A stretch of 39,898 nucleotides of DNA from positions 1 through 39,898 of the forward strand of contig CAMDMN010000001.1 in NCBI GenBank assembly GCA_945901965.1, in the 5' to 3' direction. Below, one piece after another: positions 12,619 to 39,898 of the stretch (position 1 is the first letter of the stretch; every line of letters starts with the position of its first letter). Below the pieces are notes generated by a model. It was not told the DNA's origin, did no database searches, and was given only the letters and a program-made list of their open reading frames with translations. Source of the DNA: Legionella genomosp. 1. Its GTDB lineage: Bacteria > Pseudomonadota > Gammaproteobacteria > Legionellales > Legionellaceae. The translations under genes and the position numbers were made by a program.

Positions 12619-12621
12619 AAT

Positions 12622-23673: not shown

Positions 23674-24726
23674 CTAATAATCTCTGCAATATTCTTTTAA
23701 ATGCTCGTAAATATAATCAATCTCAAATTTTCTTTGGGTATTTTTCCATAAACCAACACCACTCATTGAATCCTCAGGTTTAAAATATTTTTTTGGATTT
23801 ATATGTACAGTAGCATCCTCTCCAAGAAATTTATAAATTTTACATCTTGTCTTATCATAATCTAGAACCAAATCCTCAAAATATATCATCAAAATCCTCG
23901 AGTCTAAATTAGGACAATTAACTGCTGATCGCTCACGTAAGGTACGATATCTATAAACATAATTTTTTATATCTTCACTGCCACTAAATAATCCCTGTGT
24001 TTTTGAAAACCAATTATTAAAACAAGTTGATAAATACAAATCACGAGGATCTCTGTCAATAATAATTTGTTGAGCGTTTCCTAATAAATCTAAAGATAAT
24101 TTAGGATTATAAGGCTCACAAGCATTAAGTAGAACCATGGTTTTAGCATTATTATTAAAATATATGATTTCCTTAAATAATTTTTCTAAATAAATATTTG
24201 TAATTTTTAAAAAATTCTCTCTTTCATAAATAGTAAAAAACATTTCTTCTGAAAAAAAATGCATGTCAGGGTAAAATCGATATATCAATTTTCTAATAGA
24301 ATTATTCAATTTATTTCTATTTTGAAATGGGTATGAAGATAATCCAATATGTTGGCACTTAATTAATTGATCTGTATATTGCCTAGTAATATTTATAAAT
24401 TCATTATTAAAATAGTGATTATATCGCATACCTGTAGATAGAACCCTACCAAGTAAATTAAACCACTTTGGATTTTGTGCAATTTCTGTAGTTAATTTTA
24501 TAAATTGCTTAATAGCTGTATCTGAGCGTGAAGGAGACCAATTTTCAATTAGATCTTGATAAAGGTTAACCAAGCCATTTTTAATACGCAAAAGAGCAAA
24601 CTCAAAACTATAATGGGGCAGGCAGTATTTTTCATTAAATTCACGCAATAAATCAATAACGGCTCCTTTACCAGATGCACCAAATCCAGACAAATCTAAA
24701 AATTTAATTGTATTCATTAATTTCAT
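23674..24726 (-). CDS. Sulfotransferase-like protein
   Basis: 350 aa. It has an N-terminal P-loop-like LSGFGASGKGAV (5'-PSB-like), IIIDRDPRDLYLS matching the R-[DN]-P-x-D-x-x-x-S 3'-phosphate-binding motif, and a C-terminal IYFEDLVLDYDKTRCKIYKFLGED (the YEDL...FLG pattern of sulfotransferases). Confidence 0.55.
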   Translation of the reverse strand: MKLMNTIKFLDLSGFGASGKGAVIDLLREFNEKYCLPHYSFEFALLRIKNGLVNLYQDLIENWSPSRSDTAIKQFIKLTTEIAQNPKWFNLLGRVLSTGMRYNHYFNNEFINITRQYTDQLIKCQHIGLSSYPFQNRNKLNNSIRKLIYRFYPDMHFFSEEMFFTIYERENFLKITNIYLEKLFKEIIYFNNNAKTMVLLNACEPYNPKLSLDLLGNAQQIIIDRDPRDLYLSTCFNNWFSKTQGLFSGSEDIKNYVYRYRTLRERSAVNCPNLDSRILMIYFEDLVLDYDKTRCKIYKFLGEDATVHINPKKYFKPEDSMSGVGLWKNTQRKFEIDYIYEHLKEYCRDY

Positions 24727-25709: not shown

Positions 25710-25970
25710 TTAAGCATCCTGAAATGTTAAATCTAAAGCATCACACACCGTCATACATACCAACTGGAAGCTTCTCATTTCTAAAACCTGACTATCAGAA
25801 AACGTAACATTAAACTCTTCTTCCAATGATACAATTAAATTCATCTGCCCAATAGAATCCCATGACTGAATTGTTTCAGGAGAGGATAAAGGAGTTATTT
25901 CATTTAAATCAATCTCAAAAAGCCTCGAGATAATCTTTTTCACACAATCTTCTACTTGTTGCTTAATCAT
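25710..25970 (-). CDS. Acyl carrier protein (stand-alone)
   Basis: About 86 aa from ATG 25970, which forms an ATGATTAA overlap with the upstream stop. The phosphopantetheine-site context is QSWDSIGQMNLIVSLEEEF (a DS-L/I type motif). Confidence 0.8.
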   Translation of the reverse strand: MIKQQVEDCVKKIISRLFEIDLNEITPLSSPETIQSWDSIGQMNLIVSLEEEFNVTFSDSQVLEMRSFQLVCMTVCDALDLTFQDA

Positions 25971-27705
25971 AAATAAATTCCTTATTAACGTAATCACAAA
26001 AATTTGGTAATTTTAAATTTAAATCATAAGAATACTTTTTAACCCCATTATCAGTAATTAATAGGATAAAACCTAACTGTTCATATAGATTAGATACCGG
26101 AATATTCTTTACCGTTGGAATATATTCTCCATAGAGTATTTTTATACCTGATTTTTTTAGGTCACTAATAACTGACTCAAAAAAAGCAAATTCAATTTTT
26201 CTCCCCATAACTCGACAACTTAACAAAAATGTATCAATACTTGCGGATAACCCATTACTGTCAAATTTAATAATTAACAAACCAACCGTTCCGGCGTCTC
26301 CAAATCGATCAGATACATCTATTGCATAAACCCGACAATACTCTGAAGCAATAAATTTGCGCATTTCTGTTTCGGAGTAACGATAAGTTGTTAAGTTAAA
26401 CTGATTGGTTTTCTGTGTTAATTGAGAAAGACGAGCGACTTTAAAGAGAGGATCTATTCTTATAGATAATGATAGCTGCAAATAACGAAGATAATCATCC
26501 AAACTTTCAAATTCATTTTTTATTCTCATACGCTCATCTTCCAATTGATACATTTTTAATCTTTGCGCATCCTCTAGAGTTTGAACTAAGCCAAAAAAAC
26601 TATTAGCTAGTTTTCTTATAATTGCTGGATATTCATATAAATTACGTGGAACTTGAACTACATCGACCTCTGGAAGCATCTTTCTAATTAAATTAACTTC
26701 AAAATCACTATCATCAACAAATACAATACTATCTAAACCAATATTTAGGGTATTAGCCATATTGATTATATTTATATGTTTTTCCTCCCAATTAACCTTG
26801 CGAATACAAAGATCATTCTCACTTAGTCTCATAGTTTTATCTATTAAAAACAGTTCTTTGACATCTTCATCATTATTTTTACTACAAATTCCAACTAACA
26901 CTCCTCTTTTAATTAGAGCAGCAATAATTGTTTGAACATCTCGATATGGATAACCAATTGGAGTCTCATATTTTTCCAAAATACCTTCTACCCCATCTTC
27001 ACCAACAACTCCTGGCCAAAGTGTATTATCACAATCTAAAATTAGCATTTTTTTAATTTTTCCACGAAGAAATATCAATGGATGCTTAATTTGAGAAGTA
27101 AACACTTTCATCATATTAAGGGTATACAAAGCTTTATGTATGTAATAATTTTGTGGGCTTATTGCGCTGGATACTCCTATGCTTCCAATAATTCTATCTA
27201 TATTTACAATTTGTACATTTTTTCCAATACAAGATTCGAGTATAGAATTCATCGAGTCTACAATCAGATCAAAATTATCTGGTTGTACTTGATTATAGTT
27301 GAATGCCAAAGAAGAAAATCGGTTAAAAAGTACCAAAGGTACATTTTCTAAAATACGGAACAATAATTGTAGCTCAAGCTTACATTTATTCAAAAGCTCA
27401 TCTATTTCTTTATTTGATAAAAGATTAGCCATGTAACTTAGGCTAGGAATATAATTTGCTGCCTCCCAAAAAATAATAACAGCATCACTATCAGAGTATT
27501 TTTCTGCATCTTGAAGAATATTATCATAATCACCAATAATAACATCCGCTTTTATTCCCTCTATTCCTAATTGATATTCCAAAAGATCCTTTATTAAGTT
27601 AACAGTAATATTTGTAAGGACGACAATACGAAAAGGCAAACCACACAATTTTTTCTTCATTTCTCTATTTTGGATTACAATTTCAGAAAAAGATACTTCA
27701 CTCAT
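25963..27705 (-). CDS. FkbH-like HAD-IIIC phosphatase/acyl-loader with C-terminal GNAT-like domain
   Basis: 580 aa. HAD motif I plus the FkbH signature appear as LILDCDNTLWPGVVGEDGVEGI, together with GICSKNNDEDV. The C-terminal ~150 aa (FGDAGTVGLLI...LLSCRVMGRKIEFAFF) are acyltransferase-like, as in the FkbH-domain family. Confidence 0.8.
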   Translation of the reverse strand: MSEVSFSEIVIQNREMKKKLCGLPFRIVVLTNITVNLIKDLLEYQLGIEGIKADVIIGDYDNILQDAEKYSDSDAVIIFWEAANYIPSLSYMANLLSNKEIDELLNKCKLELQLLFRILENVPLVLFNRFSSLAFNYNQVQPDNFDLIVDSMNSILESCIGKNVQIVNIDRIIGSIGVSSAISPQNYYIHKALYTLNMMKVFTSQIKHPLIFLRGKIKKMLILDCDNTLWPGVVGEDGVEGILEKYETPIGYPYRDVQTIIAALIKRGVLVGICSKNNDEDVKELFLIDKTMRLSENDLCIRKVNWEEKHINIINMANTLNIGLDSIVFVDDSDFEVNLIRKMLPEVDVVQVPRNLYEYPAIIRKLANSFFGLVQTLEDAQRLKMYQLEDERMRIKNEFESLDDYLRYLQLSLSIRIDPLFKVARLSQLTQKTNQFNLTTYRYSETEMRKFIASEYCRVYAIDVSDRFGDAGTVGLLIIKFDSNGLSASIDTFLLSCRVMGRKIEFAFFESVISDLKKSGIKILYGEYIPTVKNIPVSNLYEQLGFILLITDNGVKKYSYDLNLKLPNFCDYVNKEFIYD

Positions 27706-28892
27706 ACCATAACTCCCCCGCCATTTACCCGCAAAGTCTCACCCGTAATAAAGTCAGAGTCAGAGCTCATTAAATAGGAAACCGCAGATGCTACATCACT
27801 AGGTTTACCCATACATTTTAATGGGGTTGAACTCTCTATTAATAAACGATTTTTCAATGGAATATCAGCGACTAAATTTGTATCGATCATACTTGGAGAA
27901 ACAAGATTAATTCTTACTCCATATGGAGCAATTTCAACAGCAACTGACTTAACATACCCTACTAGAGCAGACTTTGCGGCGATATAATGAGCCCATTTAG
28001 CCACAGGTTGATCTACAGCTTGTGTTGAAAGAACAACTATTTTCCCATATTTTTCATCAATAAACTTGGGAATGATATTGCTACTTATATTATAAAATCC
28101 CTTCAAATTAACTTCAATTTGGTCATTGATGTCATGCCATCTAAGCACACTAGAATTTAATGATGGAAGTTTAGGAGTAGGGCAAAACACAAACCCAATA
28201 ATATTTGGCATCCTTTTATTTACTTGCAAAATCATTTCTCTTACCGAATCTTCATTTGTTACATCAGCTTGAAATAAAAATACTTGGCTGGAATCAGATG
28301 CAATTTCAGAACGAAGTTTATGAGCCTGATCAGCATTTTTATTATAATGCACAGCAATATCAAAACCATCACCTGAGAGCCTTCTACAAATTTCTCTCCC
28401 TATCCCTCCAGTAGCACCTACTACAAGAACTGCTGGCTTTTTCTGTTTTTTACCAAGATCTACAGAATTTTTCTCAAGATCTTGTTCTTCAATCACCTTT
28501 ACTTTTGCATGACCACTGGTCAATAATTCATTGTGTTGATTAAATATGTTGGTTGTTAATTCAATTACTTCATCACGTAAATACTTTTTAATTACTTCTG
28601 CGCGAACTCTAAGAATATCACCAACTCGAGCTGGCTTTAAAAAATTTAATTGCTGTGACATCCAAAGAGAACCATCTCCAGGGAGCTTCGTACCAATTAT
28701 TGTAGAAATAAAAGAAGCACCTAACATTCCATGTGCTACAGGCATTTTAAAATATGTACGTGAAGCATACAACTTATCAACATGCAGACGATTGTCATCA
28801 CCCGTCAAAGTAACAAACCTCGAAATATCTTCATCAGTAATTTTATGACAGACCTCAGCAAAATCACCAACTTTAATTTCTGAAAATTTCAT
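27702..28892 (-). CDS. Bifunctional MaoC-like (R)-hydratase/dehydratase + short-chain dehydrogenase/ketoreductase fusion
   Basis: 396 aa. The N-terminal hot-dog domain carries the hydratase motif LTGDDNRLHVD. The C-terminal SDR has VVGATGGIGREI (TGxxxGIG) and YIAAKSAL (YxxxK). Confidence 0.85.
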   Translation of the reverse strand: MKFSEIKVGDFAEVCHKITDEDISRFVTLTGDDNRLHVDKLYASRTYFKMPVAHGMLGASFISTIIGTKLPGDGSLWMSQQLNFLKPARVGDILRVRAEVIKKYLRDEVIELTTNIFNQHNELLTSGHAKVKVIEEQDLEKNSVDLGKKQKKPAVLVVGATGGIGREICRRLSGDGFDIAVHYNKNADQAHKLRSEIASDSSQVFLFQADVTNEDSVREMILQVNKRMPNIIGFVFCPTPKLPSLNSSVLRWHDINDQIEVNLKGFYNISSNIIPKFIDEKYGKIVVLSTQAVDQPVAKWAHYIAAKSALVGYVKSVAVEIAPYGVRINLVSPSMIDTNLVADIPLKNRLLIESSTPLKCMGKPSDVASAVSYLMSSDSDFITGETLRVNGGGVMV

Positions 28893-28897
28893 TATCC

Positions 28898-29464
28898 TTA
28901 CAATTCCTTTTTCTGTAAACGTGACTTGACAACCCTACCAGGATTCCCCACTACAATTGAATAAGGAGGAATAGGACCACTCACTACTGATCCAGCTCCA
29001 ATCACTGACCCTGTACCAATATGTGCACCAGAAAGCAAAATGGCATTTGGGGCAATCCACACATGATCTTCAATTACAATACTATATAATTTATTATTAA
29101 AAATAATGGTTTTAAAATCATGTCCTTGTTCTATAAAAGGAAGATTTAAGTCATCAAAACGATGGTTAGCCGTTCTAACCCAAGCCCCTCGCGAAACCCA
29201 AACATGATTACCAATCCAAATCGGATAAGAATCTCCTGCAGCAATACTTGCAGATTCTCCTATCATAAAATTATCACCAACATTAATCATATTTTTAATC
29301 CCAATACTGGATCCACGCTCAAAAATAGCTTGTTTACCAATACGATCTTTCAATATATATTCCCAATATTTTCTCCGAAGCCATCTTCCTAATTGGGTTT
29401 CAGGATAATAAATAATAATAAAACTAATCCACTGCTTAATCTCAATAATGAATAATTTAAACAT
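28898..29464 (-). CDS. Hexapeptide-repeat (LbH) acyl/acetyltransferase
   Basis: 188 aa with hexapeptide repeats ending IAPNAILLSGAHIGTGSVIGAGSVVSGPIPPYSIVVGNPGRVV. It has a hydrophobic N-terminus. Confidence 0.8.
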   Translation of the reverse strand: MFKLFIIEIKQWISFIIIYYPETQLGRWLRRKYWEYILKDRIGKQAIFERGSSIGIKNMINVGDNFMIGESASIAAGDSYPIWIGNHVWVSRGAWVRTANHRFDDLNLPFIEQGHDFKTIIFNNKLYSIVIEDHVWIAPNAILLSGAHIGTGSVIGAGSVVSGPIPPYSIVVGNPGRVVKSRLQKKEL

Positions 29465-29606: not shown

Positions 29607-30233
29607 TTAATTAAAAATTATTTCCTCATTTGATTTTATCAATTTATTTTTTAAAACTTCAACACCAAACCTGTCAGACAAATTATGCAATATAAACTGG
29701 TGTCCAACTTCAACATAACCATAATCATAAGAGTCTAACCAAAAATTAAAATGTCCAATCTCCCTTAAAGAATTATTATTATCAAAGCCAGTAAAAGTAA
29801 CAACATTAACACCTCGTTCTATCGCTACTTCTACAGCATTACATATATTTTTAGATTTTCCGGAGCTACTAATTGCAATTAGCATATCACCTGATTTAAT
29901 AAATTGTGATAATACTCTAGAGTATGCATTCTCATAACCAAAATCATTTGCCATACAAGTAATCAGCGATGATTCGTGTAATACTTGCGCATTGATCTTT
30001 GCAACATTAACAAAATCAACTTGGGCATGACTTGCAACGGCCGCACTACCACCATTGCCAATAATATAAAGCGACTGTTTGTCTTGACGAATCTTTCGTA
30101 GATTGTCCAATACTTGTAACATTGCTAATTCAAGATTAACTATGTTCATTTCTTCATTTGTACAAACTGTATTGGTGATAATCTGAGCGAATTCAGTAGC
30201 GCGATGGTTAAGTTGCATTTTATTTAATTCCAT
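29607..30233 (-). CDS. SIS-domain sugar-phosphate isomerase, GmhA/DiaA-like
   Basis: 208 aa. IIGNGGSAAVASH and GDMLIAISSSGKSKNI match the phosphoheptose-isomerase-type SIS motifs. Confidence 0.8.
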   Translation of the reverse strand: MELNKMQLNHRATEFAQIITNTVCTNEEMNIVNLELAMLQVLDNLRKIRQDKQSLYIIGNGGSAAVASHAQVDFVNVAKINAQVLHESSLITCMANDFGYENAYSRVLSQFIKSGDMLIAISSSGKSKNICNAVEVAIERGVNVVTFTGFDNNNSLREIGHFNFWLDSYDYGYVEVGHQFILHNLSDRFGVEVLKNKLIKSNEEIIFN

Positions 30234-31162
30234 ATTAATTCTCCATTTTCTTTTATTTTTTCAAAATTTTTTATTACCATTAAACCCATTGCTTCAATAG
30301 CCTCTGAAGTACTACCACCTATGTGACTTGTTGCAAAAAAATTATCTAATGCAAGTAATTTTTCAGACACTTTCGGCTCTTCCTCAAATACATCTAAAGC
30401 TGCTGCTAAATATTTGCTTTTTAATACCTGATACAACGCCACTTCATCAACTAACCCCCCTCGAGCGGTATTAATTAGAATTGCCCCTTTTTTCATTGCG
30501 TTTAATTCATCAAACCCAATAAAATGATGGTTTTCTGGAAGTAATGGAATATGGAGTGAGATTATATCTGACTGTTCTAACAGTGTGTTAAGCTTCACCT
30601 GCTTTACATGTGTCATTAAATTATCATGGGTTTGAATATCATAAATTAAACATTTACAACCGAACCCTTGGAGTAATAAAGCCAAATCTTGGCCAACAGC
30701 ACCAAACCCAATAATACCAACAGTCTTATTTGAAAGTTGACTTCCAGTAGGTTGCTGCCATTGTCCTTTCTTAATCTTTTCATAAACTATATGTAAATGA
30801 CGCTGTATTGTAAAAATTAGACCTAAGACTAATTCTGATACTGAACGCTTATTCAATCCAGGAGTAGCTGCAAAACCTATACCACGACGCTCCAAAGCGT
30901 TAAGGTCAATCTTGTCTATACCAGTACCCATTTTACAAATTACTTTCAAATCTGGTAAATAGTCAAGAAGTTTATCATCAATGACTTCTAAGCCAATAAT
31001 TGCATGTGTCGCTCCATGCAAAAATTTAATTAATGCTTCATCAGCCAACTTAATTCCAGCATCATTAAATTTTACATTAGTAAATTTCTCTCGCAATCTT
31101 TGACGAAGGATATTATTTTTTGAAAATGAACGAGATGTAACTGCAACTAATTGTTTATTCAC
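30224..31162 (-). CDS. D-isomer-specific 2-hydroxyacid dehydrogenase (SerA/PdxB-like), NAD-binding
   Basis: 312 aa. Motifs are the NAD motif GIIGFGAVGQDLA, NTARGGLVDE, LDVFEEEP and TSHIGGST. It has a GTG start. Confidence 0.85.
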   Translation of the reverse strand: MNKQLVAVTSRSFSKNNILRQRLREKFTNVKFNDAGIKLADEALIKFLHGATHAIIGLEVIDDKLLDYLPDLKVICKMGTGIDKIDLNALERRGIGFAATPGLNKRSVSELVLGLIFTIQRHLHIVYEKIKKGQWQQPTGSQLSNKTVGIIGFGAVGQDLALLLQGFGCKCLIYDIQTHDNLMTHVKQVKLNTLLEQSDIISLHIPLLPENHHFIGFDELNAMKKGAILINTARGGLVDEVALYQVLKSKYLAAALDVFEEEPKVSEKLLALDNFFATSHIGGSTSEAIEAMGLMVIKNFEKIKENGELIWN

Positions 31163-31176
31163 AATAAAACATATCC

Positions 31177-31932
31177 TTATTCATGCTCAAAAAAATTACT
31201 TATTTTCTCAATGTGAGAACCTGCAGAAGCATAATCAATATACCAAGATATATCTCTACTTGGTTTAAGTAGTTGAATAGGATATTCAAACTCACCTAAA
31301 TTACTAAATACAGATTTAACCACATGAGCTTTAGATTCACCTGCAACAAGAACGGCTACTAATATTGCAGAATTTATTGCTTGCAAAGTTAAACTAATAC
31401 GACGCGATTGTAAATGTTTAACATCGATATTTACGACTATATTATTAGAATTTAATGACTCCTTATCGTCAGGAAATAATGAGGCAATATGACCGTCTAC
31501 TCCAACCCCCAATAACACAAAATCAAATTGTGGAAGGCCTTTTTCATTTTTAGGTAAATTTGAATTTAGCTTATTTTCATAAAGAATAGCTGATTCATGC
31601 GGAGTAATATCTTCCGTTTTTATACGATGGATATTTGCAACATTAAGTGAGACGTGACTCAGAAATCGAGAACTAATCATATTAAAGTTATTATCTATAT
31701 GAGATTCTGGCACAAATCGTTCGTCAGTTTGATAAATATGTACAAATTGCCAATCGATTTGATCAACATAAGGTTTGTTAGCTAAAAGAGAATAAAATAA
31801 CTGTGGCGTGTTTCCTCCAGATAGAGCAACATGAAAACTACCAGAATTACTAATATTAAATTTTGCCTGATTAACAAATTGTTGTGCAAGCATATGACTA
31901 AGTTGCTCTAAATTTTTTTTAACATATTGCAT
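31177..31932 (-). CDS. 6-phosphogluconolactonase-family protein (Pgl/DevB/NagB fold)
   Basis: 251 aa. ALSGGNTPQLFY, YQTDERFVP and LLGVGVDGHIASLFP match Pgl signatures. Confidence 0.8.
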   Translation of the reverse strand: MQYVKKNLEQLSHMLAQQFVNQAKFNISNSGSFHVALSGGNTPQLFYSLLANKPYVDQIDWQFVHIYQTDERFVPESHIDNNFNMISSRFLSHVSLNVANIHRIKTEDITPHESAILYENKLNSNLPKNEKGLPQFDFVLLGVGVDGHIASLFPDDKESLNSNNIVVNIDVKHLQSRRISLTLQAINSAILVAVLVAGESKAHVVKSVFSNLGEFEYPIQLLKPSRDISWYIDYASAGSHIEKISNFFEHE

Positions 31933-31975
31933 GCAATCATTCCAATATTATTAACCAATTGAAATTAAAAAACAT

Positions 31976-33115
31976 CTAAACCAACATATTAGATTTGGTA
32001 AAAGCAATTTTTTCTTGAGATTTAATAGCCCTCCCACTTAATAAATAAAGTCGACATAGATCTTTAAATAGCTGATCATTAGCAATATTTGCTTTAGAAA
32101 TTAAGCTATGTTGATTAAGTAAAATTAAACTCAACACATCATTACCTGTATTTTTTTTATCCTTAGAGATTGCTCGTAGGAATGCATCTAACGGAATAAA
32201 TTCCTGAGCATAATCAATATAATTTTGGGCTAATACTGCATGCATTCTAATATAATGTTCAGATGTTGTTAAATTAGTTTCCATAGCAATATAATTCGCC
32301 ATATCCATACCAATCGTTACTGCAATTCCATGAGGAATCTTATACTCTGTGGCTGACTCAATTGCATGACCAAAGCTATGGCCATAATTCATCACCTGCC
32401 GTATATCTCTATCAAATTCATCTTGTTCTATAATCTCTTTCTTAATTTCTAATGACCGACGAATATAATACGTCATCAATTCATTATTTTCGAAAAGACC
32501 ATCATAATCTTTTGATATTTGATTAAATGATTTCTCGCCGTCAATTGCATGTACCTTTAACATTTCACCAATTCCAGATCTAATAGCCTGAATATCTAAT
32601 GTCTTGAGAAATTCTAAATAAATAAAAATCTGCTTGGGTGGAGTAAAAGTTCCCAATATATTTTTAGCATCCCCACAATTTATAGAACTTTTAGAACCGA
32701 TGCAAGAATCTGCCTGAGCAAGAAGTGTAGTCGGGACAAAATACCATTCTACCCCGCGCAACATATTAGCAGCTAAAAAACAGGTAATATCTTGAATAAT
32801 ACCACCGCCAATCGCGATTAATTGCTGATTGCGCCGAAGCTTATTTTTTACTAAATGTTCAACATAAGCTGGCATTTTCTCTAGAGATTTATTTTTTTCA
32901 TCCGCTTCAATTGTTAAAACAGATATGGCAGATGTCAATATCTCTTTAAGTTGGTCGTGATAAAGAGTAAATATATTTTTATCTATTATGATATGGCTTT
33001 GATGAATGATTTCCTTATCAAGTTGAAATTTATTTCCCTCCATAAAACTTACACTATACCTTCCCTTATGAGATTGAACTTCAAATGAATAATTAGACAC
33101 GGGTAAATCCTCCAT
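31976..33115 (-). CDS. 3-dehydroquinate synthase-family sugar-phosphate cyclase (divergent AroB paralog)
   Basis: GGGIIQDITCFLAANMLRGVEWYFVPTTLLAQADSCIGSKSSIN, AKNILG, SGIGEMLK, RQVMNYGHSFGHAIE, HGIAV and SKDKK align motif by motif with AroB. The start is ambiguous between GTG 33136 and ATG 33115, and both overlap the upstream SDR stop. Confidence 0.85.
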   Translation of the reverse strand: MEDLPVSNYSFEVQSHKGRYSVSFMEGNKFQLDKEIIHQSHIIIDKNIFTLYHDQLKEILTSAISVLTIEADEKNKSLEKMPAYVEHLVKNKLRRNQQLIAIGGGIIQDITCFLAANMLRGVEWYFVPTTLLAQADSCIGSKSSINCGDAKNILGTFTPPKQIFIYLEFLKTLDIQAIRSGIGEMLKVHAIDGEKSFNQISKDYDGLFENNELMTYYIRRSLEIKKEIIEQDEFDRDIRQVMNYGHSFGHAIESATEYKIPHGIAVTIGMDMANYIAMETNLTTSEHYIRMHAVLAQNYIDYAQEFIPLDAFLRAISKDKKNTGNDVLSLILLNQHSLISKANIANDQLFKDLCRLYLLSGRAIKSQEKIAFTKSNMLV

Positions 33116-33812
33116 CAACAGCAATATTTTGCCCACTTAAATAAGTATTTTCTTCACTCACTAACCATAAAACAAATCTAGCAATCTCATCAGGCTGACC
33201 TAATCTACCAATTGGAATTTGCTGCACGATTTCAAGTATTTTATCTTCGCCTAAAATCTGTTTGGTCAAGTCAGTTTCAATAAATCCAGGCGCTACACAA
33301 TTAGCTAAAATTCCATATGAAGCTACTTCAGCAGCCAATGCAGCTGTCATACCATCTAACGCAAATTTACTAGCAGAATAAGGTGCACGCCAAGATTTAC
33401 TCACTTTACCTAAAACAGAACTCAAGTTTACTATTCTTCCCCATGCCTTTTTACGCATCCCAGGAATCACTGATCTACACAAAATAAATGGAGCGTTAAG
33501 ATTTACTCGTTGTATATTATTAAAATTTTCTAAGGTTGTGTTTTGAAAGGGAGCTATAATATTAATTCCTGCGTTGTTAATCAAAATATCTGGTTCTAAT
33601 TCAGCAAGTATTTCCGCAAATTTCTCCGTGCTTTTTTCACACAGAAAATTAACCGAATAATATTGAAAATCATCAGAAATTGTAGTCTTTTCACTTGTTC
33701 CAGTAATTAACACTTGTGCGCCAGCAAATTTAAGTTGCTGAGCTATAGCAAGCCCAATTCCTCTATTAGCTCCCGTTACAACAGCCATTTTACCATTTAA
33801 CTCAATTGTCAT
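33093..33812 (-). CDS. Short-chain dehydrogenase/reductase (FabG-like)
   Basis: 239 aa with VVTGANRGIGLAIA, NNAGI and YSASKFAL (YxxxK). Confidence 0.9.
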   Translation of the reverse strand: MTIELNGKMAVVTGANRGIGLAIAQQLKFAGAQVLITGTSEKTTISDDFQYYSVNFLCEKSTEKFAEILAELEPDILINNAGINIIAPFQNTTLENFNNIQRVNLNAPFILCRSVIPGMRKKAWGRIVNLSSVLGKVSKSWRAPYSASKFALDGMTAALAAEVASYGILANCVAPGFIETDLTKQILGEDKILEIVQQIPIGRLGQPDEIARFVLWLVSEENTYLSGQNIAVDGGFTRV

Positions 33813-33845
33813 TTAATGCTACTTCTTCTGTTATTTATTTGTAGA

Positions 33846-34916
33846 TCAGTCAATAAGTTCAAAATTTAATTTTTTGCTTTTAGATTTAGCTTTTAAAGAC
33901 CAACGGTCACTCCATGCTAGATCTGCATAGTATATTTGATACACAAGCGACATAGTATTATAAGCATCTTCTAAAGTGCCATGCTTGATCTCAGCTTTAC
34001 CTAAAATTGCATCAGCAAATTCTGCAATTTCATATTTCCAAGAATTATCTTCATTATAACGAGTAGTTTGTTCTTTAGGGTCACCACAGTCGTCTTGGGT
34101 TGCCCAAGCGATAGTCATTTTTTCAGAGCCATAACTTTTTGAACCTGAAAGAATTCCACTTAGAGTAATAGCCCCCTTTTCTAAACTAATATCTAACTGA
34201 AATTGATGACGCCATTGAGTTGCTGAAGAATGCAACATCGCCACAATTTTATTTTTAGTACGCATCAGTGCATATGCATTATCTTCAACATCATGTTTCC
34301 AAAAATCATTCGAAATAAAACTATGAACTTCACTAAACTCTCCACCAAATAAGCGTAAGAGATCAACCATATGAATTCCTTGATCAAGCAATATTCCTCC
34401 ACCTGCTATAGCACGCTGACTTCGCCAATCAGAATTTTGACCAAAATTAATTATTTTTGATTTACCATACACCCCACGCAAATTAATTACATCACCTAAT
34501 TCCTTGGAATTAATTATACTTAGAGCCGCTGAAACGGAATCATGATATCGATGATTAAATCCATATTTTAACTTAAGATGTGGATGTTTTTTCTTACAGG
34601 CGACTACCAGATCCATATCAGATAAATCACGTCCAGGTGGCTTTTCACAAAAAACATGCAACCCTCTTTCTAACCCCGCAACAGTAACTTCTGCAGCAAT
34701 ATCATTTGTCAAACACACGAAAAGAATATCTAAATCTTGAGCCAGCAACTCTTTATAATTAGAAAAATAAGGGACACCGCTATCCATTTTACCACTGCTC
34801 ATAAAATGTCGGTCACAAATAGCAACTACTTTTAAATTAGCATGCAAATCGATATGAAAATGACGACGCTTTCCAACAACACCATACCCTGCAATACCAA
34901 CCCTTAATTTTTCCAT
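33846..34916 (-). CDS. Gfo/Idh/MocA-family NAD(P)-dependent sugar oxidoreductase
   Basis: 356 aa with N-terminal VGIAGYGVVGKRRH, the EKP motif VFCEKPPG and GFNHRYH. It is the first gene of the long minus-strand operon as currently arranged. Confidence 0.9.
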   Translation of the reverse strand: MEKLRVGIAGYGVVGKRRHFHIDLHANLKVVAICDRHFMSSGKMDSGVPYFSNYKELLAQDLDILFVCLTNDIAAEVTVAGLERGLHVFCEKPPGRDLSDMDLVVACKKKHPHLKLKYGFNHRYHDSVSAALSIINSKELGDVINLRGVYGKSKIINFGQNSDWRSQRAIAGGGILLDQGIHMVDLLRLFGGEFSEVHSFISNDFWKHDVEDNAYALMRTKNKIVAMLHSSATQWRHQFQLDISLEKGAITLSGILSGSKSYGSEKMTIAWATQDDCGDPKEQTTRYNEDNSWKYEIAEFADAILGKAEIKHGTLEDAYNTMSLVYQIYYADLAWSDRWSLKAKSKSKKLNFELID

Positions 34917-34966
34917 AAAACATCCTAATTTATAAAAAATACAGTTATTTTTTTAGTAAGCCCTAA

Positions 34967-35117
34967 ACAATAAATATTGGTGCATATGCCCTTCAACTTT
35001 TTCAATGTCATTTGGACTATCAACAGAAAATGAATGTCGATAAGGATATGGCGCTATGGGCTGTTTTAATCCATGATCCATTATACAATTACTGTCACAA
35101 CGTTCTTTTAATTCTAA
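34967..35117 (+). pseudogene. IS3-family transposase (OrfB) C-terminal remnant, part 1 (interrupted by IS5-like insertion)
   Basis: The plus-strand frame reads ...MNVDKDMALWAVLIHDPLYNYCHNVLLIL. It continues in frame with 36289-36437 once the IS and one CTAA copy are removed. It is 5'-truncated near 34960. Confidence 0.6.
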
Positions 35118-35259
35118 CACCTCGTTACTAATTTGTAACGGATAAATTTTTCATTTTTAAGCTTTCTATTTTTTTATCGGATATACCAGAGTCAACTTTT
35201 TAGCTCATTAATTTTTTTGACTGTTGTCACAAAATTAGATCATCTAACGCATCCTGTAA

Positions 35260-36177
35260 CAACGCCCCCCTTGGCTAACTATTTGTGCCAATTTATCAAT
35301 GAGGCATGTGGTGTTGTAGGTGGATATGGCGGTTTACAAAAGCGCCTTATAATTAATAAGGGTATAAACCATCAGCTTCATCCCGAAATGCTGTGTGCTT
35401 GATCCACAAAAATAGTCGCTTGAATTCGTCATCCAAGGAGAACACGCGCACTATTGTTCTTAACTGATCTTCGAATATGGCCTTATCAAAAAACCGGTTT
35501 CTGCCTCGCTTTTTAGCATTTCTATTACTCTTGTTTTCATTGATATTTGGCGCCATACCCACATTGAAAATCATTTTTTCTATTTTTTTAGAGTCATATG
35601 CCCCATCCAGACTTATAAATGAACGTAAAACATCCATACTAACGGCTTTTGCAATATCTTTAAGTTTGTTAAATGCGCCTGGAAATAGTTTGGTCTCATT
35701 CGCATTGTCAGGTCCGGTAACAATGGGGGCAACGACATTACAGTTCCTATCACACAACGCGACTATTTTATCTCCTGTCAGATGATTGTGGTCGCTTTTG
35801 CCAATATTATCGCAACTTTTTTTGCAGAGGTTATTGTGCTGTTCCCGTGAAGAACGCTGGTGTCTAAAAGAGACTCCCTCTCTAACTTTGCAACCGATGA
35901 TTCAAAAACTCGGTCAAAAAACCGCTGTTAACCCAGTTTTGGAAGTGTCTAAATAATCGAGAGTAACTTATCTCGGTCCTTCAAAATGGATCTTTATCTA
36001 TAGTGAGTTTATACCACTGGCATCCCGCGCGCATTAAGATCAAAAAATAATCAAGCATCTTAAAATATGAGATTTTTGGTTGTGGTCCTTGGCAACCTCC
36101 CTTTATGTGCGCAAAAACAAATTAATTAAAGCCAGACTAGGATAATTCAGTGGGTTCCAGCTGTAGCACGTCTTCAT
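35260..36177 (-). pseudogene. IS4/IS5-type DDE transposase, multiply frameshifted and stop-interrupted
   Basis: Minus-strand fragments appear in three frames: LDEDVLQLEPTEL, GGCQGPQPKISYFKMLDYFLILMRAGCQWYKL, the 134-aa ORF 35353-35757 (DGAYDSKK...NRNAKKRGRNRFFDKAIFEDQLRTIVRVF...FKRL) and a YKALL tail. The order matches IS5-family transposases. Confidence 0.7.
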
Positions 36178-36191
36178 CCAGGAGATTCCCC

Positions 36192-36284
36192 AATTTCTAT
36201 TAATTGTGTACCGCGAGCATGATACACCAGAAAACCCTTACCTACACTGAATTTAAAGGAAATTAGAAACTAGCAACGAGGTGA
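36192..36284. repeat. 93-bp IS5-like transposase-proximal end, copy 1
   Basis: My ungapped alignment to 39517-39609 gives 82/93 identical positions. Both copies end in ...AGAAACTAGCAA[C/G]GAGGTGA. Confidence 0.88.
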
Positions 36285-36288
36285 CTAA

Positions 36289-36437
36289 AAGTTGAATTAA
36301 TTCATGAATGTGCTTATAAAACACCTGAGCAAGCAAGTCTTAGCATATTTCAATACCTGGAAGTATATTATAATAATAATTGAATGCATTCAGCTATTGA
36401 CTATAATACTATATTTGAGTTCAAATGTGCTGGGTGA
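36289..36437 (+). pseudogene. IS3-family transposase (OrfB) C-terminal remnant, part 2
   Basis: The frame reads (K)VELIHECAYKTPEQASLSIFQYLEVYYNNN*MHSAIDYNTIFEFKCAG*. This matches the IS3-family tail pattern Y-x-T-x-E-x-A-x-x-x-I-F-x-Y-I-E-x-x-Y-N-x-x-R-x-H-S-x-x-x-Y-x-x-P-x-x-F-E. There is one internal TGA where Arg is expected. Confidence 0.7.
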
Positions 36438-36692
36438 TTGTCAAAGATCGGTATCCACTAAAACACGTAAGATTATCATGATACACCAGAATCTGCAGCT
36501 CGAAATGTTACGAATATTTGGTAAGGTTTAAGTCTCAGTATTGTAATTTATCAGATGAATTACTTGGCCGAGTTGAATCCACGTTAAGTGATGTCGTTTC
36601 TGAAAGAAAGTACAAGATGAAACTTTCATTAACTTATTGATGCTGATTAAGTTAAATTAAATATAAGTTATGATTTTTATGGAGAGATTGGC

Positions 36693-37691
36693 ATGAGAGA
36701 AGTGGACATTAGACCAGAAAATATTTTTAGTGAATACTTACGCTTAACTCAAATAGATGCGGAGACATTTTTCACAAACTCAGAATGTGTTGATATAGAT
36801 TGTCCAGCTTGCGCTGCCCTTGATAAAAAGTACGCTTTCACGAAACAAGGGTTTGATTATCAAGTCTGTCAAAACTGTGAAACACTGTATCAATCACCAC
36901 GCCCTCTTAAAGTTTTATTTGATAATTTTTATTTTGACTCACCATCATCAACTTTCTGGGGAGAGCAATTTTTTCCTGCTGTTTCTGAAATTAGACGTGA
37001 AAAAATATTTAAGCCTCGATGTGAAGCAATCATCAATAAATGCCAAAAATGGGATTTTGAGCCAAAAACAGTAATAGATGTAGGTGCTGGATTTGGTGTT
37101 CTTCTCGAAGAAATGCAAAAACTGGCTCCAACTGCAGAGTATTTGGCTATCGAGCCCGGACATATTTTATCCAAAGTGTGCATGGATAAAGGCTTCGATA
37201 CACTTATATCAACAGTTGAGGAAGCTCATGAATGGCATGACAAAGCTGACTTACTTACATGTTTTGAAGTAATTGAACATACCTATAACCCATTAGAGTT
37301 TGTCGCGGCTTTAAAAAACATCCTGAAGCCAGGTAAAAAAGTATTAGTGACCGGCTTGTGTGGTGATGGATTTGATATAAAAATATTATGGGAACATTCA
37401 AAAAATATTTCACCCCCTCATCACATAAATTTTATGTCGGTAGAAGGATTTAAATTACTTTTTGAAAGAGCAGGATTTGTTAATGTTAGTGTTGAAACGC
37501 CTGGAAAATTAGATGTGGATATAGTTCTTAACGCATTGAATGATGAGAGTATAAGAAAAAATCTAAACTTAAGTAGACTTGAATCTCATTTGGTAGCGCA
37601 ATTCAAGGATAATCCACATACGTTACAACAATTTCTTGCTGACAACCAATTGAGTTCACATTGCTGGATCTGGGCTGAGAGACCATTGTAA
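36693..37691 (+). CDS. Class I SAM-dependent methyltransferase with N-terminal Cys4 zinc-ribbon
   Basis: 332 aa. The zinc-ribbon cysteines are CPACAAL...CQNCETLY, SAM motif I is VIDVGAGFGVLLEEM, and CFEVIEHTYNP follows. A GGAGAG Shine-Dalgarno lies about 8 nt upstream of the ATG. Confidence 0.8.
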   Translation: MREVDIRPENIFSEYLRLTQIDAETFFTNSECVDIDCPACAALDKKYAFTKQGFDYQVCQNCETLYQSPRPLKVLFDNFYFDSPSSTFWGEQFFPAVSEIRREKIFKPRCEAIINKCQKWDFEPKTVIDVGAGFGVLLEEMQKLAPTAEYLAIEPGHILSKVCMDKGFDTLISTVEEAHEWHDKADLLTCFEVIEHTYNPLEFVAALKNILKPGKKVLVTGLCGDGFDIKILWEHSKNISPPHHINFMSVEGFKLLFERAGFVNVSVETPGKLDVDIVLNALNDESIRKNLNLSRLESHLVAQFKDNPHTLQQFLADNQLSSHCWIWAERPL

Positions 37692-37713
37692 TTTTAAAAA
37701 GAGAGTTAAACTA

Positions 37714-38487
37714 ATGAGACAATTTACCCTAAAACAAAAACTACAAACTGGGAAATTAACCTTAGGGGCTTGGATAACATTGGGACATACTGCCATTGCG
37801 GAAATTTTTGCTCAGGCAGGTTTCGATTGGGTGGTTGTTGACCTTGAGCACAGTACTATCTCTATCGAGAAAGCAGGTGATTTGATCAGAGTCATTGACC
37901 TTGCGGGTGTTCCTGCATTAGTGCGGCTGACATCAAACGATGATTGTCTCATCAAACGAGTGATGGATGCTGGTGCCTATGGTATTGTGGTGCCGATGAT
38001 CAACTCATCTGAGGAAGCTGTTAAAGCAGTAATGGCAACACGTTACGCTCCTCACGGAACGCGTGGTGTTGGATTGGCACGAGCACAAGGATATGGACGA
38101 AATTTTAAAGATTACCTTGAGTGGCAGGAAGATTGCCCACTGGTTATTGTGCAGATAGAGCATGTTAGTGCTCTTAATAATTTAGAAGCAATATTTAGCG
38201 TTGATGGTGTTGATGGGTTTATTATTGGACCATATGATTTGTCCTGCTCTATGGGGATACCTGGTCAATTTGATCACCCTGATTTTATAAGTGCTATGGA
38301 GTCCATTAAAACCACGGGAGAACGAATGGGGTGTCCTGCTGGTATTCACATTGTGGAACCAAGTCCACAGCAGTTAGAACAAAATATTGCTGCAGGGTAT
38401 CAATTTATCGCATATAGCGTTGATATTCGTATGCTAGATGTTAGCGCGCTTAATGGTATTAGTGTGTTTAAGGAGCTTAATAAATGA
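37714..38487 (+). CDS. HpcH/HpaI-family class II (metal-dependent, pyruvate-specific) aldolase
   Basis: 257 aa. AGFDWVVVDLEHS, VRL, RVMDAGAYGIVVPMINSSEEA, YAPHGTRG, VQIEHVSALNNLEAI, VDGFIIGPYDLSCSMG and HPDF parallel the HpcH/GarL/RhmA family. Confidence 0.88.
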   Translation: MRQFTLKQKLQTGKLTLGAWITLGHTAIAEIFAQAGFDWVVVDLEHSTISIEKAGDLIRVIDLAGVPALVRLTSNDDCLIKRVMDAGAYGIVVPMINSSEEAVKAVMATRYAPHGTRGVGLARAQGYGRNFKDYLEWQEDCPLVIVQIEHVSALNNLEAIFSVDGVDGFIIGPYDLSCSMGIPGQFDHPDFISAMESIKTTGERMGCPAGIHIVEPSPQQLEQNIAAGYQFIAYSVDIRMLDVSALNGISVFKELNK

Positions 38488-39263
38488 ATGTCCTTGGTAT
38501 TATTCCAGCGCGTCTTGCCGCGAGCAGGTTTCCAAATAAACCTTTAGCAAAATTACTTAACATGCCTATGATTGGTCATTGTTACCATCGAACATGTTTG
38601 GCTCTTGGAGCTGAGAGAACTTATGTGGCAACATGTGATGATGCTATTGCCGAGTATGTTCATTCTATTGGCGGCAAGGTTGTGATGACTTCAATTGAGC
38701 ATAGTCGCGCTACAACGCGTACTGCTGAAGCGTTAGAAATAATAGAGAAAAAGACAGGTAATAAATCAGATGTAATCGTTATGGTTCAAGGTGATGAGCC
38801 ACTTATTCCCCCTCAGACTATTGCGGACACACTATTACATTTCAATGATCTTTCGTTGGATGTTGTAAATGTGATGTCAAAATTAAAAACATTGGATAAA
38901 TTTATAGACAAAAACAATGTTAAAGTTGTGGTAGATCGGAATAGCAATGCATTGTATTTTTCTAGAGAACCTATTCCATCCTTATGGAAAGGATGGGAGC
39001 ATATCCCTCGTTACATGCAAACTGGTATTATTGCTTTTCGCCGCAATATGTTATTGCATTTTAATAGTATGCCTGAAACCGAACTTGAGCAAATTGAATC
39101 AGTCGACATGAATAGGTTGCTTGAAACAGGAAGTAAGATTCGTATGGTATTAACAGAGGCAGTAACCATTGGTGTAGATACGCCAGACGAGTTGAAAGAA
39201 GCTGAGCAGTTGTTGCAAGATGATTTGTTTATTAGCCGCTATCTTGAAATGCACAGACAGTAA
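38484..39263 (+). CDS. KdsB-family cytidylyltransferase (CMP-3-deoxy-ulosonate synthetase paralog)
   Basis: 259 aa. GIIPARLAASRFPNKPLAKLLNMPMIGH, YVATCDDAI, GGKVVMTS, HSRATTRTAEA and VQGDEPLIPP match KdsB motif by motif. An ATGA overlap links it to the aldolase gene. Confidence 0.85.
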   Translation: MNVLGIIPARLAASRFPNKPLAKLLNMPMIGHCYHRTCLALGAERTYVATCDDAIAEYVHSIGGKVVMTSIEHSRATTRTAEALEIIEKKTGNKSDVIVMVQGDEPLIPPQTIADTLLHFNDLSLDVVNVMSKLKTLDKFIDKNNVKVVVDRNSNALYFSREPIPSLWKGWEHIPRYMQTGIIAFRRNMLLHFNSMPETELEQIESVDMNRLLETGSKIRMVLTEAVTIGVDTPDELKEAEQLLQDDLFISRYLEMHRQ

Positions 39264-39299
39264 AGTTTGGTAATAAATGTTATTTTGGAATAAAACCGA

Positions 39300-39609
39300 T
39301 GTTCCGCGTCTAATTTGAAGTAATTTTCAATTAAAAGGGGATGAAAGTCCCAATTGAGTTCCAATCAAGACAAAGATCAAATCAATAAACGTAGTAATAC
39401 CATATGGTAGCGCGTGCATTTTTTTAATTTTTGAAGCCATGTTATTAAATCGCGATACCGTAAGTAGCGAACAGTTGAGTCATCTTAGATTGATGTGGTT
39501 TAATTAAAGCACATCAAATTTCTATACATTGTGTACCGCGCGTATGATACACCAGAAAAACCTTAGCTAAACTGATGTTAAAGGGAATTAGAAACTAGCA
39601 AGGAGGTGA
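39300..39609 (-). mobile_element. Truncated second copy of the IS5-like element (end plus decayed transposase N-terminal region)
   Basis: Positions 39517-39609 are 88% identical to the end of the 35118-36284 element. Upstream minus-strand fragments (KMHALPYGITTF..., WNSIGTFIPF) resemble the W-R-x-L-P...G-x-W-x-T-V-Y...W-x-x-x-G region of IS5-type transposases. The body is missing beyond about 39300. Confidence 0.5.
39517..39609. repeat. 93-bp IS5-like transposase-proximal end, copy 2
   Basis: Direct repeat of 36192-36284, 82/93 identical with no gaps. Confidence 0.88.
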
Positions 39610-39721: not shown

Positions 39722-39898
39722 CTAATCCTCACCAACTAAAGATAATAAATAGTTTCCATAATTATTTTTTTGTAAATTTTTTGCTATATCTTTCAAATTA
39801 GATGATGACAACCAACCATTACCATATGCAATTTCCTCTAAACAAGCAATTTTATAACCTTGACGTTTTTCAATAGTCTCAACGAACTGTCCTGCTCC
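39722..39898 (-). CDS. rmlA: Glucose-1-phosphate thymidylyltransferase, 3' end only (continues beyond window)
   Basis: My minus-strand translation GAGQFVETIEKRQGYKIACLEEIAYGNGWLSSSNLKDIAKNLQKNNYGNYLLSLVGED* matches the conserved RmlA C-terminus (F-x-x-T-I-E-K-R-Q-G-L-K-V-A-C-x-E-E-I-A-Y...G-Y-G-x-Y-L). It is absent from the supplied ORF track because it is partial. Confidence 0.8.
   Translation of the reverse strand, partial: GAGQFVETIEKRQGYKIACLEEIAYGNGWLSSSNLKDIAKNLQKNNYGNYLLSLVGED

Follow-up and report, generated by a model that had tools for sequence, protein, structure and literature searches.

Cytidine monophosphate (CMP)-activated ulosonic acids, among them 3-deoxy-D-manno-octulosonic acid (Kdo) and the sialic, legionaminic and pseudaminic acids, act as key determinants at the cell surface. 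To our knowledge, the described routes to them all start with a phosphoenolpyruvate (PEP)-dependent synthase. Here we consider a 39,898-nt stretch of Legionella genomosp. 1 DNA (contig CAMDMN010000001.1, positions 1 to 39,898, hereafter the window) in which a methyltransferase, a class II aldolase and a KdsB-like cytidylyltransferase are encoded side by side on the plus strand at 36693-39263. A preliminary sequence-only reading had proposed that this trio condenses pyruvate with an aldose, optionally methylates the product and activates it with CMP. We find that the trio is not autonomous; it is one half of a widespread nine-gene cassette, which most likely makes a CMP-activated acidic sugar by a route not characterised before. 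We lean modestly towards a model in which the trio is the terminal module and the cassette makes a CMP-activated non-Kdo 2-ulosonic acid without any PEP-dependent synthase. Full-text literature searches returned no description of this gene combination or cassette, in keeping with the earlier impression that the trio is not a described pathway, and the only literature matches for 'heptulosaric' concerned plant rhamnogalacturonan II.

The three open reading frames (ORFs) of the trio are intact and lie where the sequence-only reading had placed them; their length, strong family matches and conserved synteny put them well outside what chance would give. The first encodes a 332-aa S-adenosylmethionine (SAM)-dependent methyltransferase (MT; 36693-37691, +; Methyltransf_23, 3e-20, 73 bits) with an N-terminal four-Cys zinc ribbon, a reading that holds because C37, C40, C59 and C62 (CxxC-18-CxxC) are invariant in all 25 homologues aligned, which come from related loci and in which SAM motif I (DVGAGFG) is conserved too. 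The methyltransferase is a tailoring enzyme of the cassette. Its homologues adjoin the aldolase and cytidylyltransferase genes at 39-48% identity in L005, L009, L012, L016 and L019 (L-numbers denote loci fetched for comparison), and in L087, the closest relative of the window, the homologue is 92% identical. After a gap of 22 nt follows a 257-aa HpcH/HpaI-family class II (metal-dependent) aldolase (37714-38487, +; PF03328, 1.4e-35, 123 bits vs a cut-off of 25, residues 18-239 covered). Aligned with YfaU, its residues E45, H46, R71, E149 and D175 fall on the positions used for catalysis and metal binding, and they are invariant across 27 members of its clade (A1), the alignment assigning E149 and D175 as metal ligands, H46 as the catalytic His and R71 as the pyruvate-binding residue. 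The protein nonetheless falls far under the NCBIfam equivalog cut-offs for HpaI (188 vs 369), GarL (166 vs 407) and RhmA (156 vs 441). The clade is distinct and highly conserved, with thousands of homologues at 67-73% identity in unrelated phyla, and a plasmid tblastn search with the aldolase returned relatives of at most 43% identity, none inside the clade. The translational coupling that had been read between aldolase and cytidylyltransferase is plain in the letters, the stop codon of one and the start codon of the other sharing ATGA at 38484-38487, and the same 4-nt overlap is kept in L003, L005, L016 and L087.

The third enzyme is a 259-aa KdsB-like CTP-dependent cytidylyltransferase (CT) of an aldolase-associated subclade (38484-39263, +; PF02348, 2.2e-42, 146 bits). 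The KdsB motifs claimed for it (IIPARLAASRFPNKPL, VATCDD and QGDEP) are all present, and it passes the NCBIfam subfamily models NF009905 (277 vs a cut-off of 255) and NF003952, yet it lies under both kdsB equivalog cut-offs (TIGR00466, 152.8 vs 155.2; NF003948, 177 vs 281). The closest solved structure is E. coli KpsU (2e-39), whose chain supplies the residue numbers used here; the comparison also took in the KdsBs of H. influenzae, Yersinia and Vibrio. All cassette CTs retain the CTP/Mg residues R10, R15, K19, Q96, D98, K141, R155 and D225, among them the P-loop Arg and Lys; in KdsB, catalysis involves K19 and the two Mg-binding Asp residues (PMC3149649). Across the clade, nine positions that are invariant in KdsB carry another residue (D51C, S75R, G76A, N94M, H172Q, Y176I, Y178F, E201D and Q202M). 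The C-terminal sugar-domain motifs HxGIYAYR/LEQLR are not kept, the window CT having QTGIIAFR/VDMNR instead; their H, Y, Y, E and Q, which we take to be Kdo contacts, are retained in four distinct solved KdsBs. In KdsB the C-terminal domain binds Kdo, and CT positions 172, 176 and 202 fall there (PMC3149649, which backs the domain assignment only). Because KdsB-invariant positions differ though the catalytic residues stay, the CT is no plain copy of kdsB, and its earlier description as a KdsB relative stands.

What this CT recognises appears to depend on its neighbour. Aldolase-linked CTs, even those at 29-36% identity to that of the window, carry M94/Q172/I176/M202 with minor variants in a few divergent loci, and the KdsB-like CTs of cassettes that lack an aldolase (type D below) carry N or C94, I172, F176 (L in two) and S202. 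Because the signature tracks the aldolase, and because positions 172, 176 and 202 lie in the Kdo-binding domain, the aldolase would seem to alter what the CT must recognise. The two enzymes thus appear functionally tied; this covariation, drawn from sequence comparison, is the strongest support for the core idea of the sequence-only reading, and together with an overlap conserved across phyla it bears out the coupling proposed there. That the aldolase shapes the CT substrate we consider highly probable.

The neighbourhood search for HpcH-family and KdsB-family gene pairs that had been suggested shows how general the association is. Among species-representative genomes 456 aldolase relatives were found, the best 80 loci were kept, and partner genes were tabulated in them by tblastn; the counts that follow refer to the 59 loci that were adequately flanked. 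A KdsB-like CT lies within 8 kb of the aldolase in 44/59, and NeuB lies near it in just 8. The most constant partner is a D-2-hydroxyacid dehydrogenase (2HADH), present in 52/59 aldolase loci and in 13/13 well-flanked loci found by searching from the AroB-like protein described below. An enzyme able to remove phosphate is present in 50/59 aldolase loci (34 HAD, 10 AroB-like and 6 inositol monophosphatase (IMPase)-like). In L087 the order is MT-HpcH-CT, three more genes, then a Gfo/Idh/MocA oxidoreductase (GFO), a short-chain dehydrogenase/reductase (SDR), the AroB-like gene, 2HADH, a SIS-domain isomerase and a pgl-like gene, all in a single co-directional operon. Such co-directional operons with all these genes occur in L087, L015, L016, L019 and other loci. 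The HpcH-CT pair, again with the 4-nt overlap, is accompanied by MT, GFO, SIS, IMPase-like and 2HADH genes in the neighbourhoods from Desulfocapsa, from a Gallionella-like contig and from a metagenomic contig of 744 kb.

Four arrangements recur among the loci. Type A (HpcH-CT-MT-GFO-SIS-IMPase-2HADH) is found in L003, L005, L012 and others; type B, the gene set of the window (HpcH-CT-MT-GFO-SIS-SDR-AroBlike-2HADH), occurs in Sulfuricella, Cellvibrionaceae, Leptospirales, Gemmatimonadetes and other taxa and partly in Prochlorococcus. Type C (CT-HpcH-2HADH-extended SDR-HAD), found in Nitrosomonadaceae and many others, is without SIS and GFO. Type D (GFO-SIS-CT-SDR-AroBlike-2HADH), found via the AroB-like protein search, is without the aldolase; in its loci neither an aldolase nor NeuB or KdsA is encoded within 10 kb. 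The enzymes shared across this divide do not sort by type. Mean identity within and between types is 0.53/0.55 for the AroB-like protein, 0.61/0.63 for GFO and 0.57/0.59 for each of the other two members of the GFO/SDR/AroB-like/2HADH set, and nearest neighbours of the same cassette type make up ~53-59%, near the expectation from composition. By these identities, GFO, SDR, AroB-like protein and 2HADH appear phylogenetically intermixed irrespective of the aldolase.

In the window these partners form what we call module X (29607-34916), which comprises, on the minus strand, the GFO, SDR, AroB-like, lactonase-like, 2HADH and SIS genes. The GFO, a proposed sugar-phosphate dehydrogenase (33846-34916, -; Pfam), has relatives of 59-66% identity in cassettes of many phyla and of 84% in L087. 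Next comes a classical SDR ketoreductase (33093-33812, -; Pfam) directly upstream of the AroB-like gene; an SDR ~670 nt upstream of that gene is fixed in 13/13 well-flanked loci. The AroB-related protein itself (31976-33136, -; true start probably at 33115, giving 379 aa) scores 470 bits vs a cut-off of 400 on TIGR04425, which NCBI names "putative sugar phosphate phospholyase (cyclizing)", and stays under the cut-off of the aroB model TIGR01357 (273 vs 305). The active-site residues for binding of Zn, phosphate and carboxylate, D136, K142, N152, E184, K187, K225, R239, N243, H246, H250, H262, K320 and R120, do not vary among 25 members of the family (we assume the mapping to the A. nidulans 3-dehydroquinate synthase (DHQS) numbering), and the invariant Arg and Lys of TIGR04425 presumably bind the carboxylate of 3-deoxy-D-arabino-heptulosonate 7-phosphate (DAHP). 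Its nearest PDB entries are true DHQS enzymes, neither 2-deoxy-scyllo-inosose synthase (DOIS) nor 2-epi-5-epi-valiolone synthase (EEVS). Then follow a 6-phosphogluconolactonase-like protein, the proposed lactonase for an oxidised sugar phosphate (31177-31932, -; TIGR01198 pgl, 183 bits), whose gene recurs in L087, L105 and Nitrosomonadaceae loci, and the D-isomer-specific 2HADH (30224-31162, -; Pfam), which among PDB entries comes closest to phosphoglycerate dehydrogenase and glyoxylate reductase. The last is a GmhA-like SIS sugar-phosphate isomerase (29607-30233, -; SIS_2). Its nearest PDB entries are phosphoheptose isomerases (3e-16) and it keeps the GNGGS, NDFGYE, SSSGKS and GH..H motifs; it scores 77 vs 209 on TIGR00441, and two of the four Zn-site positions of B. 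pseudomallei GmhA are altered (E to D, Q to E).

All nine cassette genes are intact in the window, where the two halves are nonetheless set apart. Between module X and the trio lie 1.8 kb of broken reading frames (34917-36692), including a decayed transposase-like ORF (35353-35757, -; 134 aa) that looks IS5/DDE-like by eye, a reading of the letters with no Pfam or NCBIfam match behind it. This scar is probably a decayed insertion sequence (IS) that split the cassette. The trio is bracketed by a 93-nt direct repeat (36192-36284 and 39517-39609, both +) whose copies are 88% identical, the only two in the window where none is expected by chance; the fetched comparison loci hold no copy. Because no Rfam family matches anywhere in the window and the repeat shows no fold signal (z-scores -0.9 to +0.5), we do not treat it as an RNA element. 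Beyond the right copy the minus-strand glycan locus goes on, with the gene of an RmlA-like glucose-1-phosphate thymidylyltransferase cut by the right end of the window so that its C-terminal 58 residues are left (39722-39898, -). The trio thus forms an island of opposite orientation in a locus otherwise encoded on the minus strand. The DNA of the trio (36518-39295) is 90% identical to L087 and that of module X 69-73%, the corresponding protein identities being 91-96% and 68-84%, and GC content is 38.6% in the trio, 33% in module X and 32% in the remaining locus. The contrast in identity, the GC content, the flanking repeats and the IS scar indicate that the trio segment was probably imported or replaced recently. 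Upstream of the methyltransferase, TTGAAT-16-TATAAT at 36380-36407 matches the sigma-70 consensus at 10/12 positions, a consensus match only.

How might such a cassette work? Its substrates, step order and product are all read here from gene content, the reactions typical of the module X families being such that they can be strung into one sequence. The SIS isomerase would convert a ketose phosphate, probably sedoheptulose-7-phosphate, to an aldoheptose-7-phosphate, the GFO would oxidise C1 to a lactone that the lactonase-like protein would open to the aldonate, and the 2HADH would oxidise C2, yielding a hept-2-ulosonate 7-phosphate, the 3-hydroxy analogue of DAHP. This compound would fit the AroB-like enzyme, because the DHQS active-site residues are invariant there and the closest structures are true DHQS enzymes. 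That enzyme would eliminate phosphate and the SDR would reduce the resulting ketone to a 7-deoxy sugar acid, with an IMPase-like or HAD phosphatase acting in place of the AroB-like/SDR pair in sister cassettes; the exchange of this pair for an IMPase-like enzyme between types B and A suggests a phosphate removal that leaves a reducible ketone. The class II aldolase may then make or remake the C3-C4 bond with a pyruvate-type enolate, whether as an epimerisation (retro-aldol/aldol) or as a true condensation, and the KdsB-like enzyme would attach CMP. The methyltransferase would methylate the sugar at some stage, and a hexapeptide-repeat acyltransferase encoded nearby (28898-29464, -; Pfam), possibly a sugar O-acetyltransferase, might decorate it too; its homologues adjoin HpcH or CT in L009, L026, L031, L032, L049, L059 and L069. 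The product is most likely destined for the polysaccharide encoded by the window locus.

This order of events leans on the cassettes that lack an aldolase. Since module X occurs there with a CT, and since its enzymes are intermixed across the types, the chemistry should be the same in both settings, and module X alone would then have to yield a compound fit for activation by a KdsB-type enzyme. The aldolase is thus probably not the acid-creating enzyme. The sequence-only reading had also wondered whether the trio supplies a 2-keto-3-deoxy acid to the DHQS-like genes. The genomic linkage is real, as the operons of L087, L015, L016 and L019 show; aldolase and DHQS-like enzyme show no covariation, and we reject the idea that one feeds the other, module X being independent of the aldolase. 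Donor exchange by the aldolase, amounting to net 3-deoxygenation, was likewise set aside as chemically possible but pointless when erythrose-4-phosphate is freely available. Beyond this, we tentatively suggest, as a doubtful but specific version, that the products are CMP-activated C7 acids of a kind not known before, hept-2-ulosonic acids (7-deoxy in the AroB-like variant) that are built oxidatively from sedoheptulose-7-phosphate, with no PEP condensation and with the AroB homologue serving as a phospholyase outside aromatic biosynthesis, and whose C3-C4 configuration or 3-substituent is reset by the aldolase right before the CMP is attached. If true, such 'mini-sialic acids' would occur on Prochlorococcus, SAR11, SAR86, Nitrosomonas, Leptospirales and many uncultured bacteria.

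Several observations sit uneasily with a cassette that makes a CMP-activated non-Kdo ulosonic acid in this manner. In 15/59 aldolase loci there is no CTP_transf_3 gene within 8 kb, and the CT signature has two apparent exceptions, as in L104 the aldolase position is off the contig end and L106 combines an aldolase with the aldolase-less signature. Module X and CT function without the aldolase, which may remodel rather than build the sugar, and type C, with neither SIS nor GFO, favours a true condensation. Cyclisation by the AroB-like enzyme as in DHQS would give a carbocycle, an unlikely candidate for a glycosyl donor. In the window itself no homologue of the TIGR04326 family, a companion of aldolase-type cassettes elsewhere (see below), is encoded; with the trio inverted relative to module X and an IS scar between them as well, the pathway may be impaired here.

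The condensation favoured by type C is in essence what the sequence-only reading had in mind, with pyruvate and an aldose or aldose phosphate giving a 3-deoxy-2-ulosonic acid that loses its phosphate to a phosphatase or phospholyase and is joined to CMP. HpcH would replace KdsA, SIS would correspond to KdsD and the IMPase-like or HAD enzyme to KdsC, and GFO, 2HADH and methyltransferase would be tailoring enzymes. The complete catalytic set of the aldolase, the adjacency and coupling of HpcH and CT, and a phosphate remover in 50 of the 59 loci all suit it; type C is most simply a condensation pathway, every CMP-activated sugar known to us is a 3-deoxy acid, and pyruvate plus erythrose-4-phosphate would give a DAHP isomer for the DAHP-type site of the AroB-like enzyme. 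We nevertheless think it unlikely, if worth keeping in view. It leaves the near-universal 2HADH without a role, the equilibrium of pyruvate aldolases lies toward cleavage, and the module X enzymes, AroB-like included, are the same with or without an aldolase. Because module X and a KdsB-like CT are found with no aldolase, NeuB or KdsA, the acid can arise without any condensation. Of the three-step scheme, the functional coupling of CT and aldolase holds up; as a whole it is incomplete, ignoring the 2HADH (52/59) and the phosphate remover (50/59). The 2HADH would gain a role if it oxidised D-glycerate (or 3-phosphoglycerate, with a phosphatase) and the aldolase used the resulting hydroxypyruvate to make a 3-hydroxy-2-ulosonic (Ko-like) acid. 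It is the tightest partner of the aldolase, often in an overlapping gene, its nearest relatives of known structure are phosphoglycerate dehydrogenase and the glycerate/glyoxylate reductases, hydroxypyruvate would need a dedicated supply enzyme where pyruvate would not, and HpcH-family hydroxyketoacid aldolases exist (6r62). This too we regard as distinctly unlikely, since orthologous 2HADHs (44-49% identity) are equally constant without the aldolase (13/13), so that no donor supply can be at issue there, and since GFO, SIS and the lactonase-like protein are left unexplained. Hydroxypyruvate supply as a general role of the 2HADH is rejected on the first of these grounds.

Two further accounts remain to be weighed. 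The CT might be an ordinary KpsU-like CMP-Kdo synthetase for capsule or O-antigen, with aldolase and methyltransferase as unrelated catabolic neighbours; NF009905 would indeed name it 3-deoxy-manno-octulosonate cytidylyltransferase, and KpsU is its closest solved structure. A CT below the kdsB equivalog cut-off, with nine KdsB-invariant positions replaced clade-wide, several of them within the Kdo-binding domain, coupled to an aldolase across phyla and always in a glycan-biosynthetic context, never in a catabolic operon, makes this barely credible. The trio might instead be a stranded remnant, brought in on a mobile segment, uncoupled from its partners and possibly silent in this genome, as the bracketing repeats, the decayed transposase beside it, its higher identity to L087, its raised GC content and its orientation against the remaining locus could suggest. 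None of the three trio ORFs or the six partner ORFs is broken, their catalytic residues are kept, and the sigma-70-like match stands upstream of the methyltransferase; we consider a remnant highly unlikely. Our modest preference remains with an oxidatively built, CMP-activated non-Kdo ulosonic acid to which the trio contributes the last steps.

Some variants of the cassette deserve separate mention. L056 and 14 other aldolase loci carry a sub-cassette of the form HpcH-2HADH-HAD-extended SDR and lack a CTP_transf_3 gene within 8 kb; in place of the CT, L056 encodes a methyltransferase, an NTP_transferase and two B12-radical SAM enzymes; the aldolase product may not always be CMP-activated. In type D cassettes there is a second GFO paralogue, in most cases together with a HisC-like class I/II aminotransferase (L097 4170-6433, L105 1798-2898, L106, L107, L109, L113, L128 and L164), and close homologues of these two (at least ~45% identity) occur only in loci with the aldolase-less signature or in fragments without a typable CT. 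These cassettes look like an amino-sugar-acid variant. A 610-aa protein of TIGR04326 (LIC13510, 'surface carbohydrate biosynthesis protein'; 498 bits) is encoded at L087 5006-6838, with relatives in L011, L012, L013, L018, L028, L035, L038 and L132; where the CT is typable it occurs only with aldolase-type cassettes, and it is a candidate transferase or pathway enzyme. In L088, a flagellar island, and in L089, GFO-SIS-SDR-AroBlike-2HADH adjoins flagellin, FliW and CsrA genes and stands with PseB/PseC-like genes, a short PseF-like CT and MptE/Maf-like proteins, which suggests that the product of module X is usable for flagellin glycosylation. A natural 580-aa fusion, P0221, joins a HAD phosphatase domain to an AroB-like domain.

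The surroundings of the cassette in the window are those of a large surface-polysaccharide locus of ~32% GC, almost all of which from 5140 to 34916 is on the minus strand, with glycosyltransferases, Wzx-type and Wzy-type proteins and a nucleotidyltransferase. The glycan-biosynthetic setting without a PEP-dependent synthase, in line with the sequence-only reading, was confirmed by protein-family scans, which covered the 40 window ORFs of 100 aa or more and found no NeuB-type or KdsA-type (DAHP_synth_1) synthase. FnlA/B/C-like genes lie at 10380-13644 (-), and an FdtA/hexapeptide acetyltransferase/DegT set for an acetamido-dideoxyhexose lies at 14928-16874 (-). Two Wzx-like flippases and one Wzy-type polymerase (TIGR04370) are encoded at 7678-8967, 13675-14931 and 16906-18132 (-); their presence in one locus together with the Fnl and Fdt sets suggests a complex repeat unit or two glycans. 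A sulfotransferase-like protein (23674-24726, -; PF13469, 2e-8) has homologues in L010 (36% identity) and L016 (25% identity) whose genes follow closely downstream of the cassette, and the glycan may be sulfated. At 25963-29464 (-) an FkbH-domain/HAD-IIIC protein (TIGR01686, 261 bits), a MaoC dehydratase-SDR fusion and the hexapeptide acyltransferase together look like a module for a glyceryl or hydroxyacyl side chain; in L031, homologues of the FkbH-like and hexapeptide proteins adjoin the cassette. A 580-aa protein of the window was ruled out as the transferase, being an FkbH-domain protein, and there is no convincing cassette-co-occurring glycosyltransferase among the window genes.

The reach of the cassette extends well beyond Legionella. 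Several thousand close homologues of the aldolase and the AroB-like protein are present in metagenomes, and the 456 aldolase relatives in species-representative genomes include ecologically dominant marine and nitrifying lineages. Cultivable carriers include Desulfocapsa sulfexigens DSM 10523, Nitrosospira briensis Nsp8 and Nitrosomonas marina Nm71. The labels "3-deoxy-manno-octulosonate cytidylyltransferase", "3-dehydroquinate synthase" and "2-keto-3-deoxy-L-rhamnonate aldolase", which annotation pipelines now give to parts of the cassette, are probably wrong. Knowing the product would bring in a new class of sugar with its own biosynthetic logic and set many annotations right, and the residue signature of the CT provides a handle for predicting which cassette variant a genome carries.

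Set against the systems it most resembles, the cassette recombines familiar parts. Its AroB-like protein retains every active-site motif residue of DHQS, yet differs from AroB, DOIS and EEVS in being always flanked by SDR and 2HADH within glycan loci, and its step, unlike that of AroB, swaps with plain phosphatases in sister cassettes. The aldolase has the fold, metal ligands and catalytic His and Arg of HpaI, GarL and RhmA/YfaU but only ~35% identity to them; those enzymes are catabolic, whereas this one sits in a biosynthetic context, translationally coupled to a nucleotidyltransferase. In Shewanella, Kdo is tailored to Kdo8N by the oxidase KdnB and the aminotransferase KdnA before KdsB acts. 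The aldolase-less sisters likewise place an extra oxidoreductase and an aminotransferase before a KdsB-like CT, an arrangement that resembles oxidation followed by transamination, although the families differ: GFO and a HisC-like aminotransferase in the sisters, an Fe-alcohol dehydrogenase and an aminotransferase of class III in Shewanella. This likeness belongs to the sister cassettes and not to that of the window.

The nonulosonic acid pathways (NeuB/NeuC/NeuA, Pse, Leg) also deliver an acidic keto-sugar, activated with CMP by a CTP_transf_3 enzyme, to surface glycans, and some related loci hold NeuB, NeuC or Maf-like transferases as well. NeuB-type condensation is, however, absent from the window and from most related loci, the CT of those pathways belongs to the NeuA/PseF branch rather than the KdsB branch, and their skeleton is C9 where that of the cassette is likely C7, from sedoheptulose-7-phosphate. 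The Kdo pathway (KdsD, KdsA, KdsC, KdsB; KpsF/KpsU in E. coli) comes closer. Both employ a SIS-type isomerase, both would pass through a phosphorylated ulosonate that loses its phosphate (on the cassette side this is proposed), and the cassette CT shares the fold and the catalytic Arg, Lys and Asp set of KdsB and is likewise encoded in a surface-polysaccharide locus. But the isomerase is GmhA-like instead of KdsD-like; where the Kdo pathway relies on KdsA, a PEP-dependent enzyme of the DAHP-synthase fold, the cassette has a class II aldolase and an oxidative GFO/2HADH pair; phosphate removal by KdsC is replaced by the AroB-like enzyme and SDR, or by IMPase-like or HAD enzymes in sisters; and the sugar-domain residues of the CT are unlike those of every KdsB compared. 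With no PEP-dependent synthase, with a CT that falls outside KdsB by both equivalog score and sugar-domain residues, and with an aldolase and an AroB-like protein that stay under the cut-offs of the named families, the cassette belongs to neither the Kdo nor the nonulosonate pathway. In it, enzymes from a separate branch of the KdsB family stand together with a class II aldolase, two oxidative dehydrogenases and an AroB homologue.

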